DNA of 64,000 nt. Origin: Patescibacteria group bacterium (GTDB lineage: Bacteria > Patescibacteriota > Minisyncoccia > Phycocordibacterales > UBA9973). Made by a program: the position numbers and the translations under genes. Under the pieces are notes generated by a model. That model saw only the letters and a list, made by a program, of their open reading frames with translations. It was not told where the DNA came from and ran no database searches. Shown here one piece after another: positions 6,749-60,954 of the stretch. The stretch is taken from the NCBI GenBank assembly GCA_038063515.1, contig JBBTUY010000006.1:26505-90504 (forward strand). Direction: 5' to 3'. The stretch's first letter is position 1. The number at the start of each line of letters is the position of its first letter.

Positions 6749-6771
6749 AAGTATATTATAGCATAAATAGC

Positions 6772-9231: not shown

Positions 9232-9328
9232 AAAATATAATTTTTGGAGGGGTCTCGCGGCTGTCGAGCTGAGAGTTTCAGGATTTTTTAAGCTTCAAAA
9301 AATCTGTACCGGAAAAAATTGATATTTT
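9232..9328 (+). repeat. Intergenic structured repeat (family S, copy 1) in the polA/gspE divergent region
   Basis: Matches TTTTTGGAGGGGTCTC-[hairpin]-GAGAGTTTCAGGATTTTTTAAGCTTCAAAAAATCTGTACCGGAAAAAATTGAT, closed by the local inverted repeat aaaatataatttt / aaaattgatatttt. Confidence 0.8.
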
Positions 9329-11069: not shown

Positions 11070-11396
11070 AATTATAAAGAAAAACATATTGAGAGAGAAT
11101 GTAAACCTGAAAATTAGAAATAAAAAAAGCATTAATCTCTAAACAATCCTTCCAGGACTGAGCCCCGAAAGTAATAAATTATTATAGGATAGCACCAGAA
11201 GATAATAAAATCACCAGAACGTCCTACGCAAATTTATATAACCTTAATAGCTGATTGCTTAGAGATTAATGCCTTCTTTTTCACACCAAAGAATTGTACT
11301 ACATAGAAATATTAACAAGTGCTATACTGTGTATAGCTATGTTGATACCATGTTGATAAACTCTTTATTTTCATACTATAGCATACTATTTAGTTA

Positions 11397-12404
11397 ATGT
11401 CAACTATCATGCCCGACAATGAAACAACCGAAAAAAATGAAGATTCCTTCTTAGACCACACACTACGCCCCCAAGTGTGGGATGAATACATAGGTCAAAA
11501 ACATATAAAAGATAATGTGAAAATTCTTCTTGAAGCTGCGTCTGGCCGAGGACAAATACCAGAGCACATTTTATTCTACGGACCACCAGGACTCGGGAAA
11601 ACTACACTCGCACATTTGATAGCAAGAGAAACAGGTAGACAGATGAGGATAACTTCTGGTCCTGCGATAGAGAAAGTGGGCGACCTCGCATCCATACTCA
11701 CAAATCTCTCTAGTGGAGACATACTTTTTATAGACGAGATACATAGATTAAATAAAATGGTGGAGGAAATACTTTACCCCGCCATGGAGTCTGGTGTCCT
11801 CGACATCATCATAGGTAAAGGCCCATCTGCACGCACTATACAGCTCGACTTACCACCCTTTACGATGATAGCTGCAACGACACGCGTGGCTATGGTATCA
11901 TCTCCCCTTCGCTCCCGCTTCTCTGGAGGAGTTTTCCGTCTTGAGTTTTATTCTGATGAAGAGATAGCGCAGATCGTAGAGAGGTCTAGTAGACTTCTCG
12001 AGACAAAATTAGATAAAGAAGCATTAGAAGAAATAGCAAAAAGAAGTAGGTTTACACCCCGTACTGCAAACTATTTTTTAAAGAGGGTGCGTGACTATGC
12101 CCAAGTACACAAGAAGGACTTAGATCAAAAGACAGTGAAGGAAGCTTTAAATATGCTCGCGATAGACGACATAGGATTAAACGGAGATGACAGGAAATTT
12201 TTAGAAATTTTGATTGAAAAATTTAATGGTGGACCAGTGGGATTAAAGACCATGGGTGCTGCACTCGCAGAAGAAGAAGCTACGATAGAAGAAGTCATAG
12301 AGCCATACTTGATCCAGCTCGGACTCCTCGAACGCACAGCAAGAGGACGCATAGCGACAAAGAAAGCATACGAGCATCTCGGTTTTGATTTTATAGAAAA
12401 ATAA
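11397..12404 (+). CDS. ruvB: Holliday junction branch migration ATPase RuvB
   Basis: 335 aa. LRPQVWDEYIGQ..ILFYGPPGLGKTTLA..LFIDEIHRL are the AAA+ RuvB motifs. Confidence 0.95.
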   Translation: MSTIMPDNETTEKNEDSFLDHTLRPQVWDEYIGQKHIKDNVKILLEAASGRGQIPEHILFYGPPGLGKTTLAHLIARETGRQMRITSGPAIEKVGDLASILTNLSSGDILFIDEIHRLNKMVEEILYPAMESGVLDIIIGKGPSARTIQLDLPPFTMIAATTRVAMVSSPLRSRFSGGVFRLEFYSDEEIAQIVERSSRLLETKLDKEALEEIAKRSRFTPRTANYFLKRVRDYAQVHKKDLDQKTVKEALNMLAIDDIGLNGDDRKFLEILIEKFNGGPVGLKTMGAALAEEEATIEEVIEPYLIQLGLLERTARGRIATKKAYEHLGFDFIEK

Positions 12405-12410
12405 AAAAAA

Positions 12411-12444
12411 GGGGTGAGAGTCGTGGGGATACGACTCTCACCCC
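12411..12444 (+). other. GC-rich hairpin immediately downstream of ruvB
   Basis: ggggtgagagtcg-tggggata-cgactctcacccc is a 13-bp perfect stem. No T-tract follows on the plus strand; an A-tract precedes it. Confidence 0.4.
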
Positions 12445-12569
12445 AACAGGATGGAGAAACCTATTACAGGTTCTTCTTAACTGTATTATTAAAGGTGTAA
12501 AAATGCAAATATGTTTATCCACATATATAAACATATAAATTTTAAAAATTTATTAAAAAGCAACAAAGG

Positions 12570-12778
12570 CCAAGCTGACGAGAACGTCAGCTTGGCTCTT
12601 GGTTGGACCTCAGGATGTGTAACACATCAGCTGAGCCTAAGTTGTCTAAATCGACAACTTAGGCTCAGCTCTCCTCGGCCTCTTCCATTTCAAATGGAAG
12701 AGGCCGATCGAGGTCTCTTGGCTCGATCGGAATAACATTCATGATTTTCTCCTTTCGAACCCAAAGGGGTTCGAAAAA
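12570..12778. other. Cluster of five consecutive strong hairpins (candidate structured RNA or palindromic repeat cluster) between ruvB and ruvC
   Basis: Perfect or near-perfect stems at 12570-12595 (ccaagctgacg..cgtcagcttgg), 12630-12669 (17-bp stem gctgagcctaagttgtc..gacaacttaggctcagc), 12677-12705 (ggcctcttccattt..aaatggaagaggcc), 12705-12731 (ccgatcgag..ctcgatcgg) and 12755-12778 (ttcgaaccc..gggttcgaa). The region is GC-enriched against an AT-rich background. Confidence 0.5.
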
Positions 12779-12906
12779 ATAAATTTTAGCACCTCCCCCA
12801 ACAGTCCTAAAAGACCAGGGAGGCACTTTCAAATAAAGAAGAACATATTGAGAGAGAAAATACAAATAAAGTTATCCCCACCCCAAAGACATGCTAGACT
12901 TAAGAT

Positions 12907-13410
12907 ATGGCAAGAATTTTAGGCATAGATCCGGGATATGAGAGACTCGGTATAGCGGTTTTAGAAAAGTCCTCCTCTGCACAAGGCTACAGAAGACTAA
13001 AAGAAAAAGTTTTATTTTCTGAATGTTTTAAAACTTCGAGTAAGTTACCCTTCGAAGAGAGGCTACTTCTCATCGCAGATGAGGCAAAAAGTGTCATAGA
13101 AAAATACAAGCCAGAAATACTATCTATCGAGACTTTGTTTCTAAATACAAATCAAAAGACTGTGATGCACGTAGCCGAAGCACGAGGTGTCATCATATGT
13201 GAAGCTATGAGGGCAGGTATGAAAGTATTTGAAGCGACTCCACTCCAGATAAAGATAGCGACGACAGGTTATGGAAGAGCAGATAAAACTCAAATGATAA
13301 AAATGGTAAAGATGCTCGTAGAGATAGATGAGAGTAAAAAGTCTGATGATGAACTCGACGCTATAGCCATAGCCCTCACTGCTTTTGCGAATCTAAGATT
13401 ACAGAGTTAA
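12907..13410 (+). CDS. ruvC: Crossover junction endodeoxyribonuclease RuvC
   Basis: 167 aa with MARILGIDPGYERLGIAVLEK (catalytic Asp in IDPG) and the C-terminal DDELDAIAIALT motif. Confidence 0.9.
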   Translation: MARILGIDPGYERLGIAVLEKSSSAQGYRRLKEKVLFSECFKTSSKLPFEERLLLIADEAKSVIEKYKPEILSIETLFLNTNQKTVMHVAEARGVIICEAMRAGMKVFEATPLQIKIATTGYGRADKTQMIKMVKMLVEIDESKKSDDELDAIAIALTAFANLRLQS

Positions 13411-14934: not shown

Positions 14935-14953
14935 TTTCTGCTATACTTCAAAA

Positions 14954-19115: not shown

Positions 19116-20462
19116 TTATTTAAACATTATTCGTATCTGCTCGAGTTCTTGTAGAAGCTGGGGGTCATTTTTTATATCAACTTTTATTTTCAAGCATGAA
19201 TGTATTACTGTGGTGTGATCTTTACCTCCTAGTTTTTGTCCAATGAGGGGGTAAGATACATTAAAGTCTTCTCTTAAAAGATACATTATTACTTGTCGAG
19301 CCTTTACTATTTCTTTCTTTCTTATTTTTTCATAGATTGATTCCTCTTCTATTTTATAGTACTCGCTAACTATTTTAACAACATCTTTTATTGCCATGTT
19401 CTTTTTTGGTTTGATGCTGTTTTTCAGAAGATTTTTTATTTCAGAAAGTGTGGGCGATCTACCTTTTAGTTTGTATTGGCATACTATTATATTTAGGCTA
19501 CCTTCCAGTTCGCGTATATTGCCCTCTATTGTGCCTGCTACGTACTCAACTATCTCTGGCTCTAGTTCTATGTTTAATTCTCTTAATTTAACCTTTAAAA
19601 TGGCTACACGAGACTCGTATTCAGGTTCTGTTATGTCTACTATCATCCCAGCTGCAAAACGAGACTTGAGCCTGTCTGCTAGTTCGGGGATGTGGTTTGG
19701 GTGTTTGTCTGAGGAGAAGACTATTTGTTTATTATTTTCGTAGAATGTGTTAAATGTGTGGAAAAGCTCTTCTTGAATCTTCTCCATCTTACCTATAAAC
19801 TGAATATCGTCTATGATGAGGAGATCATACTTCCTATATTTCTCTTTAAATGAGTTTGCTTTATTGTTTTGTAGAGAATTTATGAAATCAGTCGCAAATT
19901 TCTCTAGTGTCATATAGTGCACTTTCTTGTTTTCATACTTTTCTTTTATTGTATTCCCTATTGCTTGCAGGAGGTGTGTTTTTCCTAGGCCTGTTGGTCC
20001 ATATATAAAGAATGGATTGTATTTTGTTCCTGGACTGTCCACAATCGCACTTGCAGCAGCATATGCGAGCTCGTTAAATGTACCAACTACAAAGGAATCA
20101 AAGTGGTAGCGTGGATTTAAGTTGTCTTCTGGGTTTATATATAGGTCTTTTAAGGGTAATTCTTTGTTTACAAAAGAACTTTCACCTACTTTCGTTATTT
20201 CTTGCTTACTAACTTCTATTTTAGTGATTACATATTCTACTGCACGCATGTTTTCGTAAGCTATCGCTATAGTTTTAGTTATTAGTTTATGGTATTTATT
20301 CATTAACCAGTCACGCACGAACTCATTTGGTACTGCTATATACACTATTCCTAATTCTTCTTTTAAAATAGAGGTATTCTTAAACCAGGTACTGAAATTA
20401 GCCTTAGAAACCTCAGTTTCAATTTCTAGGAGGCAGTTTCTCCAGAGTTGTTTTGTATCCAT
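19116..20462 (-). CDS. dnaA: Chromosomal replication initiator DnaA
   Basis: 448 aa with the AAA+ Walker A GPTGLGKTHLLQAIGN and the C-terminal DNA-binding domain (..VKARQVIMYLLRE..). Confidence 0.95.
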   Translation of the reverse strand: MDTKQLWRNCLLEIETEVSKANFSTWFKNTSILKEELGIVYIAVPNEFVRDWLMNKYHKLITKTIAIAYENMRAVEYVITKIEVSKQEITKVGESSFVNKELPLKDLYINPEDNLNPRYHFDSFVVGTFNELAYAAASAIVDSPGTKYNPFFIYGPTGLGKTHLLQAIGNTIKEKYENKKVHYMTLEKFATDFINSLQNNKANSFKEKYRKYDLLIIDDIQFIGKMEKIQEELFHTFNTFYENNKQIVFSSDKHPNHIPELADRLKSRFAAGMIVDITEPEYESRVAILKVKLRELNIELEPEIVEYVAGTIEGNIRELEGSLNIIVCQYKLKGRSPTLSEIKNLLKNSIKPKKNMAIKDVVKIVSEYYKIEEESIYEKIRKKEIVKARQVIMYLLREDFNVSYPLIGQKLGGKDHTTVIHSCLKIKVDIKNDPQLLQELEQIRIMFK

Positions 20463-22550: not shown

Positions 22551-22652
22551 AAATAAAATAATTTTTGGAGGGGTCTCTCGGCTGCCCTGCCGAGAGTTTC
22601 AGGATTTTTTAAATTTGAAAAATCTGTACCGGAAAAAATTGATTTTATTTAA
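22551..22652 (+). repeat. Intergenic structured repeat (family S, copy 2) between convergent jag and the T4SS-like operon
   Basis: tttttggaggggtctctcggctgccctgccgagagtttcaggattttttaaatttgaaaaatctgtaccggaaaaaattgat. The internal hairpin arms differ from copy 1 but still pair (ctctcggc/gccgagag). The closing inverted repeat is aaataaaataattttt / aaaattgattttattt. Confidence 0.8.
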
Positions 22653-46647: not shown

Positions 46648-46685
46648 AGTTTGATTGTATCAATAAGGTATAAGTAAAGCAAAAA

Positions 46686-46807
46686 TAATAAGATTTCCGA
46701 AAACCGAAATTTTTGTCGGTACAGATTTTTTGAAGTTTAAAAAATCCTGAAACTCGCGGCTCGACAGCCGCGAGACCCCTTAAAAATTTGTTTCCGGAAA
46801 TCTTATT
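46686..46807 (-). repeat. Intergenic structured repeat (family S, copy 3, long form, inverted orientation)
   Basis: The reverse complement contains ttaaggggtctcgcggctgtcgagccgcgagtttcaggattttttaaacttcaaaaaatctgtaccgacaaaaatttcgg. The closing inverted repeat is aataagatttccgaaaac / gtttccggaaatcttatt. Confidence 0.8.
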
Positions 46808-47121: not shown

Positions 47122-47220
47122 ATGTACATAGTAGCATAAAAGTCTTTAAATTGCAAGTCCCTTACATAAGGTGTAGATATTTGATGACTCTATATACCGC
47201 ACACATGCTACAATGTATAT

Positions 47221-48140: not shown

Positions 48141-48265
48141 AAAATAAGATTTACAAAAACCGAAATTTTTGTCGGTACAGATTTTTTGAAGCTTAAAAAA
48201 TCCTGAAACTCGCGGCTCGACAGCCGCGAGACCCCTTAAAAATTTGTTTTTGTAAATCTTATTTT
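48141..48265 (-). repeat. Intergenic structured repeat (family S, copy 4, long form, inverted orientation), directly downstream of the recombinase gene
   Basis: Same core as copy 3 (about 95% identical). The closing inverted repeat aaaataagatttacaaaaac / gtttttgtaaatcttatttt differs from copy 3 but still pairs. Confidence 0.8.
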
Positions 48266-57125: not shown

Positions 57126-57238
57126 AATAACAAAGACACTTTTTGGAGGGGTCTCTCATCTGGCGAGATGAGAGTTTCAGGATTTTCCAAGCTTCGGAAA
57201 ATCCGTACCGAAAAAAAGTCGGTCTTTGTTATTTTATT
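57121..57238 (+). repeat. Intergenic structured repeat (family S, copy 5) between convergent ZIP and M23 peptidase genes
   Basis: The core has hairpin 1 tctcatct-ggcg-agatgaga and hairpin 2 gattttCC-aagcttc-GGaaaatc (a double compensatory change relative to copies 1-4). A 24-bp site-specific closing inverted repeat is aataaaataacaaagacac / gtcggtctttgttattttatt. Confidence 0.8.
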
Positions 57239-58748: not shown

Positions 58749-60866
58749 ATGCAAAAAAAGGAATATTCTGTTGAGGTAGGAGGCAAGACGCTTACAGCTA
58801 TCTTTACTGATCTCTCAGATCAGGCTCATGGGTCTGTAATGCTAAAATATGGCGATAGTGTGGTTATGGCTAATGTCTGTATGTCTAAGGACAGCCAGGC
58901 AGGGCTCGGGTATTTCAACCTTACAGTGGACTATGCAGAGAAGTTTTATGCCGCAGGGAAAATCCTCGGCTCACGTTTTGTACGAAGAGAAGGGAAGCCT
59001 TCTGAAGATGCAATTCTTGCAAGTCGTGTCATAGATCGTACTCTTCGTCCGCTCTTTGACCAGTCTATACGTCATGCAGTGCAGGTGATTGTGACTGTGA
59101 TCGCAGTTGATGACAATGATCCTACTATCCTTGCTGTAAATGCGGCATCTCTCGCACTTGCAGTATCAAACATCCCTTGGGCAGGGCCTATTGGATGTGT
59201 ACGTATTGGAAAGTATGACAGTGACGAGCTTGTTATAAATCCTTCACAGAAACTACGCCAAGATGATTCTACATATAAATACGACCTCACTATCTGTGGT
59301 AAAGACGGAAATATAAATATGATCGAGGCTGCAGCTCACGAAACTACAGAGGAAGAGCTTGCTGAAGCATTTAAAAGAGCAAGTATTGAGATAACAAAAT
59401 TAGAAAATTTCCAGAAAAGTATTGTCAAAGAAATAGGTAAAGAAAAAAGAGTGATAGAAAAAGGCACGATCAGTGCTGAGTCTGTAAAGCTTTTTAATGA
59501 AAATATAAGACCTAAGATGGAGAAAGCTATTTTCTCTGGTCCAGGTAAAAAGGAAATAGATGAGTTACACACTATATGGAACAATTTAGTGCGTGAAACA
59601 TTTACAGAGCAAAAAGATTTCTCCCATGAAGACAATTTATTTGATGATACAGAAAATGAAATCCTGCATAAGAAAGCAATAGAGGACAACAAAAGAGCAG
59701 ACGGAAGGGATATGGATGGACTTCGTGATTTGTATGCACAGGCAGGAGGAGTGTCTTCAGTGTTACACGGTTCCGGTATTTTTTACAGAGGGGGGACACA
59801 TGTACTTTCTGTGCTTACTCTCGGTGGACCAGAAGATAGAAACCTCGTAGACGGTCTACAGCTCAAAGTAGAAAAAAGATTTATGCATCACTACAACTTT
59901 CCTCCGTATTCTGCGGGAGAAGTCGGACGATCTGGTTTTACTAATAGACGAGAAGTAGGCCACGGTGCACTTGCAGAAAAGGCTCTCGCTATGGTGCTTC
60001 CCCCCGTTTCTGAATTTCCATATACTATAAGACTCGTATCTGAATCTATGGCATCAAATGGCTCTACTTCACAGGCTTCTATCTGTGCATCAATACTCGC
60101 ACTCATGGATGGAGGTGTACCTATAAAGGCACCAGTCGCTGGTATTGCTATGGGACTCATGTATGAGAGCGATGATAAATACAAAGTGCTCACTGACATT
60201 CAAGGTCCCGAAGATCACCATGGTGATATGGATTTTAAAATTGCTGGTACACGTGCGGGCGTCACAGCTATACAGCTCGATGTAAAAGTAGAGGGCGTGC
60301 CTATAAAGATTCTTTACGAAGCAATGGTGCAGTCTAAAAAAGCTAGATTTAGTATCATTGATGCAATAGAAAAAGAAATTCCTAGTCCACGTACTGAGAT
60401 ATCTTCTAATGCTCCTAAAATTTTAATAATAAAAATATTCCCAGATCAGATCGGAATGGTGATAGGTGGCGGAGGTAAAAATATAAAAGAATTAAAAGAA
60501 AAGACAGGAGCCGAGATAACAATTGAGGATGATGGAACTGTGTACTTTACTGGTAAAGACGGCTCTGCCGAAAAAGCACGAGACATGGTACTCGAGATGA
60601 CGCATGAGTTTAAAGTAGGGGAAATGCTCTCAGGTGAAGTTGTGAAAGTTGCGGACTTTGGTGCGTTTGTGAGACTCAATGCTTTTTCTGATGGACTTGT
60701 GCACATTTCTGAGATGGCACCATTTCGTGTTGAGAGAGTTTCAGATATAATAAAAGAAGGAACAATCGTGCCCGTGAAAGTTATCAAAGTTGATAGAGAA
60801 AACGGAAAGATAAGTCTATCTATCAAAGAGGCAAATATTGATTTCTTTAAAAATATTAAAATATAA
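58749..60866 (+). CDS. pnp: Polyribonucleotide nucleotidyltransferase (PNPase)
   Basis: 705 aa with two RNase PH domains, a KH domain (IPDQIGMVIGGGGKNIKELKEKTGA) and a C-terminal S1 domain (GEVVKVADFGAFVRL). Confidence 0.95.
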   Translation: MQKKEYSVEVGGKTLTAIFTDLSDQAHGSVMLKYGDSVVMANVCMSKDSQAGLGYFNLTVDYAEKFYAAGKILGSRFVRREGKPSEDAILASRVIDRTLRPLFDQSIRHAVQVIVTVIAVDDNDPTILAVNAASLALAVSNIPWAGPIGCVRIGKYDSDELVINPSQKLRQDDSTYKYDLTICGKDGNINMIEAAAHETTEEELAEAFKRASIEITKLENFQKSIVKEIGKEKRVIEKGTISAESVKLFNENIRPKMEKAIFSGPGKKEIDELHTIWNNLVRETFTEQKDFSHEDNLFDDTENEILHKKAIEDNKRADGRDMDGLRDLYAQAGGVSSVLHGSGIFYRGGTHVLSVLTLGGPEDRNLVDGLQLKVEKRFMHHYNFPPYSAGEVGRSGFTNRREVGHGALAEKALAMVLPPVSEFPYTIRLVSESMASNGSTSQASICASILALMDGGVPIKAPVAGIAMGLMYESDDKYKVLTDIQGPEDHHGDMDFKIAGTRAGVTAIQLDVKVEGVPIKILYEAMVQSKKARFSIIDAIEKEIPSPRTEISSNAPKILIIKIFPDQIGMVIGGGGKNIKELKEKTGAEITIEDDGTVYFTGKDGSAEKARDMVLEMTHEFKVGEMLSGEVVKVADFGAFVRLNAFSDGLVHISEMAPFRVERVSDIIKEGTIVPVKVIKVDRENGKISLSIKEANIDFFKNIKI

Positions 60867-60954
60867 ATTTTGGAGGGGTCTCTCATCTGGCGAGATGAGA
60901 GTTTCAGGATTTTCCAAGCTTCGGAAAATCCGTACCGGAAAAATTTGATATTTT
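60858..60954 (+). repeat. Intergenic structured repeat (family S, copy 6), immediately after the pnp stop
   Basis: About 97% identical to copy 5 across the core. The closing inverted repeat is aaaatataaatttt / aaaatttgatatttt. Confidence 0.8.

Follow-up and report, generated by a model that had tools for sequence, protein, structure and literature searches.

In the 64,000-nt stretch of DNA analysed here (contig JBBTUY010000006.1 of a Patescibacteria group bacterium; hereafter the window), the genes ruvB (11397-12404, plus strand) and ruvC (12907-13410, plus strand) are set apart by a 502-nt spacer, which holds a run of hairpins that each differ in sequence from all the others. This hairpin array is real and far from chance. 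It is single-copy in the 64-kb window and among the related loci searched, and it is not a conserved RNA gene. The reading that we tentatively prefer, with the chances standing slightly against it, is that of a lineage-specific palindromic DNA block that was imported or remodelled as a unit at an insertion hotspot, with probable minus-strand transcription and, at most, a role as a transcription barrier. The array, though real, is probably an ordinary feature of the genome.

Perfect hairpins with a stem of at least 9 bp occur 26 times in the window, and seven of them lie within the ruvB-ruvC spacer, against about 0.15 predicted from the rate outside it (Poisson P of the order of 1e-9). When 1.08 Mb (the window together with the related loci) were scanned for at least three GC-rich perfect hairpins per 300 nt, only three sites were recovered, all of them upstream of ruvC, and only in the array of the window are the hairpins mutually unrelated. 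The folding energy of the interval 12400-12910 is -200 and -216 kcal/mol on the two strands (z = -14.1 and -15.8 against shuffles), and that of the core (12555-12777) is -124 and -120 kcal/mol (z = -14.1 and -11.6). Folding both strands, as suggested in a preliminary description of this DNA, gives strong structure on each (z of -12 to -16), and the core is symmetric. The core stems comprise about 84 bp, all Watson-Crick and none G-U; together with the equal folding of the two strands, this points to palindromes at the DNA level. The core is predicted to form independent perfect hairpins and one four-way module, not a 6S-like rod. The island that holds them (about 12564-12826) has a GC content of about 47% in a 36% GC genome and is flanked by AT-rich DNA.

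The hairpins were located by direct reading and repeat-finding in the window (35.7% GC). Five consecutive different hairpins had been described at 12570-12778; all are present, each distinct in sequence and without direct repeats, and two more lie outside that range (12411-12444 and 12788-12826). The leftmost (12411-12444), a GC-rich and perfect hairpin of 14 bp, starts 7 nt past the stop codon of ruvB. A T8 run (12410-12403) follows it on the minus strand and gives the canonical layout of an intrinsic terminator on that strand only, whereas on the plus strand A8 precedes it and AACAGG follows. The hairpin had been set apart as terminator-like and assigned to ruvB; its existence stands, but the A8 ahead of it on the plus strand is not the layout expected for a ruvB terminator. 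Two AT-rich palindromes follow at 12509-12553 (a 10-bp hairpin at 12509-12536, and ATAAATTTT-A-AAAATTTAT at 12535-12553). Hairpin G has a stem of 12 bp if only perfect pairing is counted (12569-12596) and of 17 bp if two mismatches are allowed (12564-12601); on the minus strand its perfect part is followed by the U-rich tail CTTTGTTGCTTTTT, and it was classed as terminator-like. The earlier statement that no hairpin has a U-tract layout therefore holds for the hairpins of 12629-12776, which have no U-tract after them on either strand, but not for 12569-12596.

Next come a 6-bp hairpin (12614-12628), a hairpin of 18 bp with a 6-nt loop (12629-12670; the longest stem, previously given as 17 bp and here extended by one A-T pair) and a hairpin of 15-16 bp (12675-12707). 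These three are enclosed by a closing helix, GACCTC (12606-12611) with GAGGTC (12710-12715), to form a nested module (12606-12715) whose prediction is identical on both strands; closing helix and three arms would make a four-way junction on either strand. A perfect 9-bp hairpin, CCGATCGAG/CTCGATCGG (12704-12730), shares 4 nt with the 12675-12707 hairpin, and its formation competes with that of the closing helix of the module. The last hairpin of the core, TTTCGAACCC/GGGTTCGAAA (12753-12776), has 10 perfect bp. Beyond it lies an imperfect hairpin with G-U pairs (12788-12826, minus strand), the only strand-asymmetric one (-22.6 kcal/mol on the minus strand vs -11.0 on the plus strand), whose arms CCTCCCC/GGGAGG recall the CCTCCCCT-NNNN-AGGGGAGG hairpins that relatives carry upstream of ruvC.

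The array is bracketed by a 10-nt direct repeat, ATAAATTTTA (left copy 12535-12544, right copy 12779-12788), and by a 10-bp inverted repeat (left arm AAAATTTATT, 12545-12554; right arm AATAAATTTT, 12778-12787). Further to the right, a 26-nt segment at 12833-12858, ATAAAGAA[A/G]AACATATTGAGAGAGAA, has a twin at 11074-11099 that is identical in 25 of 26 positions; the 11074-11099 copy lies 5 nt past the stop of gspE, the 12833-12858 copy 74 nt upstream of ruvC. This direct duplicate is absent from all 160 related loci, which argues for lineage-specific remodelling of the ruvB-ruvC spacer.

The comparison set comprised 80 genome loci collected via RuvB, with identities of up to 87%, and 80 metagenome loci collected via RuvC, with identities of up to 76%, i.e., 160 loci from Nomurabacteria/Paceibacterota of the candidate phyla radiation (CPR); copies within the host genome were sought in the 64-kb window. 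In the 160 loci the ruvB-ruvC spacer showed no similarity by blastn (word size 7), nhmmer or shared 12-mers beyond the end of ruvB and the start of ruvC, so that the interval of the array has no homologue there. No hairpin of the array has a further copy in the window or in the 1 Mb of sequence from relatives, and no second copy of the array was found in the window or the related loci. A blastn search of phages and plasmids with the spacer gave no match, and three of four hairpin patterns matched nothing in viral contigs; the single match of the fourth, an 18-base pattern, sits in a GC-rich coding region and is attributed to chance. At the gathering threshold Rfam recognised only five tRNAs in the window. 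Under permissive settings the best scores for the spacer were 25-30 bits, compared with gathering scores of 70-93, and represent generic hairpin matches. An Rfam scan of the loci of 16 relatives found no family. The two open reading frames (ORFs) over the array, already regarded as non-coding, were searched against protein sets of 5.8 billion and 1.8 billion sequences and against Pfam: the plus-strand ORF (74 aa) matches only itself, the minus-strand ORF (66 aa) matches none of the 1.8 billion representatives, and neither has a Pfam match, in agreement with that view.

Several named classes were tried and rejected. Decayed CRISPR, for which the preliminary description had likewise seen no support, does not apply, as a repeat search of 12300-13000 found no regularly spaced direct repeats but only two-copy matches of 9-15 nt. 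Integron attC sites were discarded, as a regular-expression search of 12541-12800 found no paired RYYYAAC...GTTRRRY core sites and the stems are perfect, without extrahelical bases. A relic of yebC, the gene that often precedes ruvC in relatives, was not detected by tblastn or by a hidden Markov model of 17 YebC sequences (filters off, six frames), nor after deletion of the left arms, the right arms or the whole hairpins. The Y1_Tnp ORF of related locus L022 found no Y1 transposase in the 64-kb window by tblastn, and a DUF559 gene is likewise absent from the window. The restriction sites AGCT, GGCC, CGATCG, TTCGAA and CAGCTG occur in the window at expected frequencies and so carry no information on foreign origin; other contigs from this organism match at 99.98-100% identity across 1-7 kb and so offer no polymorphism usable for the array. 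The array belongs to no named family; what it resembles most is a terminator or insulator cluster of mobile-element-type palindromes.

The same searches succeeded one spacer upstream. The gspE-ruvB spacer (11070-11396) contains, on the minus strand, a candidate structured RNA of about 165 nt (11120-11279) with a 25-bp closing helix, three inner helices and a U7 run at its end. It was found upstream of ruvB in 120 related loci (nhmmer E values down to 1e-41), and because these belong to the same set, the search method was able to reveal conservation where it exists. In a 54-copy alignment, 27 of the 52 pairs of the minus-strand consensus show compensatory double changes, and several G-U pairs are conserved. 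The spacer folds at -87 kcal/mol on the minus strand vs -57 on the plus strand. The RNA has no Rfam match at E <= 1 and, in a profile search, is single-copy in the window; it looks like an undescribed non-coding RNA family of Nomurabacteria/Paceibacterota. Its hallmarks of conservation, compensatory changes and strand-biased folding are all missing from the array. The array was also dismissed as a paralogue of this RNA, whose profile matches only 11120-11279. The earlier suggestion of a structured multi-stem small RNA (sRNA) fits the gspE-ruvB spacer, not the ruvB-ruvC spacer.

In relatives the order ruvB-ruvC is kept, and the DNA just upstream of ruvC is the variable part. Among 144 loci the gene next upstream of ruvC is yebC in 80 and ruvB in 64; the yebC-type gene encodes 174-179 aa (Pfam TACO1/YebC). 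The gap upstream of ruvC is mostly shorter than 100 nt, and about 45 loci hold 200-2600 nt of unrelated extra DNA. In L022 the slot contains an IS200-like Y1 transposase gene (Y1_Tnp) with perfect hairpins on its flanks; in L019 and L143 it contains TACCAAGGG hairpins resembling repetitive extragenic palindromes (REPs); and in L047, L052 and L137 it contains DUF559 endonuclease-like cassettes bounded by inverted CCTCCCCT-GCGA-AGGGGAGG hairpin repeats. The site upstream of ruvC is an insertion hotspot in the clade, hypervariable across the related loci examined. The gene yebC is absent from the slot of the window and from the whole window; its lineage has lost the gene from the slot with no trace left.

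Further loci add to the inventory of the slot. Carriers of IS200-like Y1 transposase genes or REP-like hairpins are L019, L022, L135 and L143, and the CCTCCCCT-type hairpin motif also occurs just upstream of ruvC or yebC (L014, L033, L093). Loci that lack yebC or have extra DNA often show a GC-rich slot (L031 (= L099/L100/L104), L033, L037, L014, L010, L107). Such GC-rich slots carry a minus-strand mini-ORF of 27-58 aa, preceded by SD-like (Shine-Dalgarno-like) AGGAG or GGAGG and followed by a strong hairpin. The spacer DNA of these slots has no mutual similarity (the peptides themselves were not compared), and the six of these loci that were scanned, L014, L031 and L037 among them, gave no Rfam match.

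Putative signals for transcription are found on the minus strand of the ruvB-ruvC spacer. The sequence TGCTAAAAT (12791-12783) exactly matches the extended -10 promoter type of the genome, and its predicted transcription start, near 12776, coincides with the first hairpin of the array on that strand, so that the 12753-12776 hairpin would form the 5' end of the transcript. In its strict form, TGNTANAAT, the motif is present at seven sites of the window that lie outside ORFs: five sites lie 7-59 nt upstream of a same-strand gene, one precedes an ORF that leaves the end of the window, and the seventh is 12791-12783. Terminator-like tails also exist on the minus strand only, where the hairpins at 12596-12569 (CTTTGTTGCT) and 12444-12411 (T8) have the layout of intrinsic terminators.

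The preferred reading, a palindromic block acquired or remodelled as one piece, joins these elements as follows. Most likely, foreign or mobile DNA gave rise to the GC-rich island, which came in or was remodelled as a unit. It would probably be transcribed from TGCTAAAAT on the minus strand, and transcription would end at one of the two hairpins that have tails on this strand, 12569-12596 (U-rich) or 12411-12444 (U8). The predicted product, an orphan RNA with heavy folding, would measure about 220 nt, or about 370 nt with read-through to the second terminator. The only likely effect would be a two-way transcription barrier between ruvB and ruvC, the latter being independently promoted and presumably leaderless. 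A GC-rich island between AT-rich flanks favours import over local origin, and the simultaneous perfection of the core stems points to a single recent acquisition or remodelling, to ongoing palindrome-correcting mutation or to selection.

Several points weigh against this reading. If the core stems are neutral, their perfection demands a very young block; otherwise selection or palindrome-correcting mutation is required. No donor element or second copy was found in the 64-kb window, the related loci or the phage, plasmid and viral sets, and no transposase in the window. The bracketing 10-nt direct and 10-bp inverted repeats are compatible with insertion but statistically weak: they are AT-rich, their local P of about 0.01 was computed post hoc, and about 0.3 exact 10-mer repeats are expected by chance in a spacer of such size. 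The search for copies in the host genome spanned 64 kb only, and the nearest relatives (RuvB identity at most 87%, RuvC at most 78%) leave room for recent conservation. Finally, hairpins without U-tracts are weak terminators, which makes a barrier role on the plus strand a guess.

The most serious competitor, which we nevertheless consider unlikely, is a functional lineage-specific gene on the minus strand, either an sRNA that runs for about 220 nt, from 12776 to about 12556, or a mini-mRNA for the 25-aa peptide MNVIPIEPRDLDRPLPFEMEEAEES, with a stabilising 5' hairpin, one open GGAG-N6-ATG segment and tandem terminators. It would account for a consensus extended -10 at the right distance from the first hairpin, for terminator-like tails on that strand only and for perfect stems, which suggest constraint; the GGAG...AUG segment is the sole long unpaired stretch of the predicted RNA. 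The genome already encodes a minus-strand RNA beside ruvB, in the adjoining spacer, and in several relatives the slot contains GC-rich mini-ORFs on the minus strand that are accompanied by SD-like motifs. On the other hand, neither the RNA nor the peptide has a homologue in the collections searched, the stems are strand-symmetric and lack G-U pairs, unlike those of the gspE-ruvB RNA, and transcription is predicted to start downstream of the only hairpin with G-U pairs (12788-12826). The mini-ORF itself (12665-12752, minus strand; GGAG at 12752-12749, ATG at 12742-12740, stop at 12667-12665) is 25 codons long, its ATG lying six nt after the GGAG. An SD-like motif within 18 nt upstream is found for only one of the 47 genes of the window, so that the GGAG weighs little, and the combination of Shine-Dalgarno motif and ATG was discounted as evidence for a small gene because the other 46 lack such a motif. 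As the genome is poor in SD-like motifs, two perfect palindromes of the array (9-15 bp) lie inside the ORF and no homologues were found, the ORF is probably not a gene.

A bolder form of this idea, to which we give somewhat less credit still, takes the array for a young lineage-specific RNA gene of about 220 nt that starts at 12776 from TGCTAAAAT on the minus strand, folds through a four-way junction, ends in tandem terminators and was born from, or captured with, palindromic mobile DNA; in its remoter version the array would be a cruciform or four-way-junction DNA site between the Holliday-junction genes ruvB and ruvC.

Two further explanations seem improbable to us, to a similar degree. One is that several palindromic elements of different kinds (REP/REPIN elements, miniature inverted-repeat transposable elements (MITEs) or IS200/IS605-type ends) inserted independently, each leaving one hairpin as a relic. 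The slot does receive such elements in relatives, and the 12788-12826 hairpin resembles the CCTCCCCT hairpins upstream of ruvC in L014, L033, L047, L052 and L093. Yet insertions of differing ages should show graded decay, and the core stems are all perfect, which argues against such an accumulation; moreover, each hairpin is unique in the window and across 1 Mb of sequence from relatives, none belongs to the six-copy repeat family of the window, and neither a Y1 transposase gene nor a DUF559 gene is present in the window. The preliminary description had offered palindromic insertion relics akin to the other repeats of the window as an alternative; the insertion hotspot seen in relatives lends this some substance, but membership of the six-copy family is excluded.

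The other is the making of palindromes in place by replication template-switching (quasipalindrome correction, short inverted duplications) in DNA left unconstrained after the deletion of yebC. This mechanism, described for Escherichia coli, yields perfect strand-symmetric stems without selection (PMC7202029). The nested and abutting inverted repeats and the local 26-nt duplication of the spacer would fit such local rearrangement. However, AT-rich spacer DNA of the neighbourhood is an unlikely source of an island with about 47% GC (genome 36%) and AT-rich flanks, removal of either arm of each hairpin recovers neither yebC nor any recognisable sequence, and no other spacer of the window shows such a process.

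A site acting at the DNA level, be it a fragment of a single-strand origin or oriT-like region of a plasmid or phage, or a cruciform or four-way-junction site tied to ruvB and ruvC, is very improbable. Symmetry with Watson-Crick pairs only does fit DNA hairpins, the closing helix and its three arms form a four-way junction on either strand, and the position between ruvB and ruvC is suggestive; but no Rep, relaxase or transposase gene lies nearby, no similarity to phages, plasmids or viral contigs was found, and relatives keep ruvB-ruvC without the array, which is thus not needed for ruv function. Membership of a conserved structured non-coding RNA family, 6S-like as the preliminary description had thought possible or of another class, we regard as scarcely credible: the very low folding energy would suit it, but there is no Rfam family at threshold and no rod shape, the stems are strand-symmetric, and the absence of homologues from the 160 related loci contradicts it.

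Compared with known systems, the array shows partial likenesses. REPs are multi-copy, imperfect palindromes with a common conserved head motif, and REP/BIME (REPIN) elements reportedly go together with RAYT transposases. The array shares with them short GC-rich extragenic palindromes clustered between genes, and relatives hold a Y1_Tnp gene and REP-like TACCAAGGG hairpins in this very slot, but its hairpins are unique, perfect and single-copy in 64 kb, and the window has no Y1 transposase gene. With intrinsic terminators it has in common GC-rich stem-loops between two genes, two of them with U-rich tails on the minus strand; it differs in that the other four or five hairpins lack a U-tract on either strand and in that stems of 15-18 bp are longer than usual. 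The ordinary terminators of the window are single hairpins between A- and T-runs, unlike the array. IS200/IS605 elements, DUF559 cassettes and MITEs share with it the slot and GC-rich hairpins in an AT-rich host, whereas the array has no cargo gene, no similarity to the cassettes and no second copy; the 10-bp inverted and 10-nt direct repeats around it would fit such elements but are AT-rich and statistically weak. Like 6S RNA and the multi-stem sRNAs of Rfam, the array is about 200 nt long with a strong predicted structure, but it lacks a covariance-model match, the rod with a central bubble, conservation and G-U pairs. The GC clusters of yeast mitochondria are mobile GC-rich palindromes that form repeated families in an AT-rich organelle genome. 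They too are GC-rich palindromes in the AT-rich spacers of a reduced genome; the array differs in having no other copy in the data searched.

The promoter of ruvC, TGCTAGACT (12892-12900, plus strand), is followed by 6 nt and then by the ATG at 12907, a leaderless layout (12892-12906), and with a promoter of its own ruvC does not depend on read-through from ruvB. Similar starts, with TGCTAnAnT, 6 nt and ATG, occur across the window, e.g., at 6755-6763 (minus strand), 12892-12900, 14939-14947, 46654-46662 (minus strand) and 47206-47214. An extended -10 six nt before the ATG implies leaderless mRNAs, and by this sequence signature promoters of the type TGCTAnAnT + 6 nt + ATG appear to dominate in the window.

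Between the 11120-11279 RNA and the start of ruvB, a block on the plus strand (11320-11372) is kept across the 54 aligned loci. It holds an extended -10, TGCTATACT (11320-11328), followed by three DnaA-box-like repeats, TGTGTATAG, TGTTGATAC and TGTTGATAA, which are of the TGTGGATAA type in relatives; dnaA itself is located at 19116-20462. The block may serve DnaA control of ruvB or may be an origin-related site.

The window also contains a six-copy intergenic repeat of about 80 nt (9240-9320, 22561-22640, 57139-57219 and 60866-60946 on the plus strand; 46708-46788 and 48164-48244 on the minus strand) with the consensus GGAGGGGTCTCTC...GAGAGTTTCAGGATTTTyyAAGCTTCrrAAAATC..GTACCGGAAAAAA. It forms two hairpins with compensatory differences among the copies and mostly lies directly past gene ends or just upstream of promoters. 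Copies are also present in L010, L027, L095 and L129, and no Rfam family is assigned at the gathering threshold. As a parent of the array this family was rejected: its profile finds the six copies (E values of 1e-21 to 1e-27) and none in 12405-12906 at E <= 1.

The conserved, covarying RNA outside Rfam, one spacer upstream of the array, merits a study of its own. By itself the array is of little weight; it shows a reduced CPR genome tolerating, and perhaps transcribing, dense perfect palindromes at a hotspot, and it shows that an RNA gene cannot be recognised from a low folding energy alone. If its minus-strand transcript were functional, it would be a rare case of a species-specific structured RNA built from palindromic DNA.

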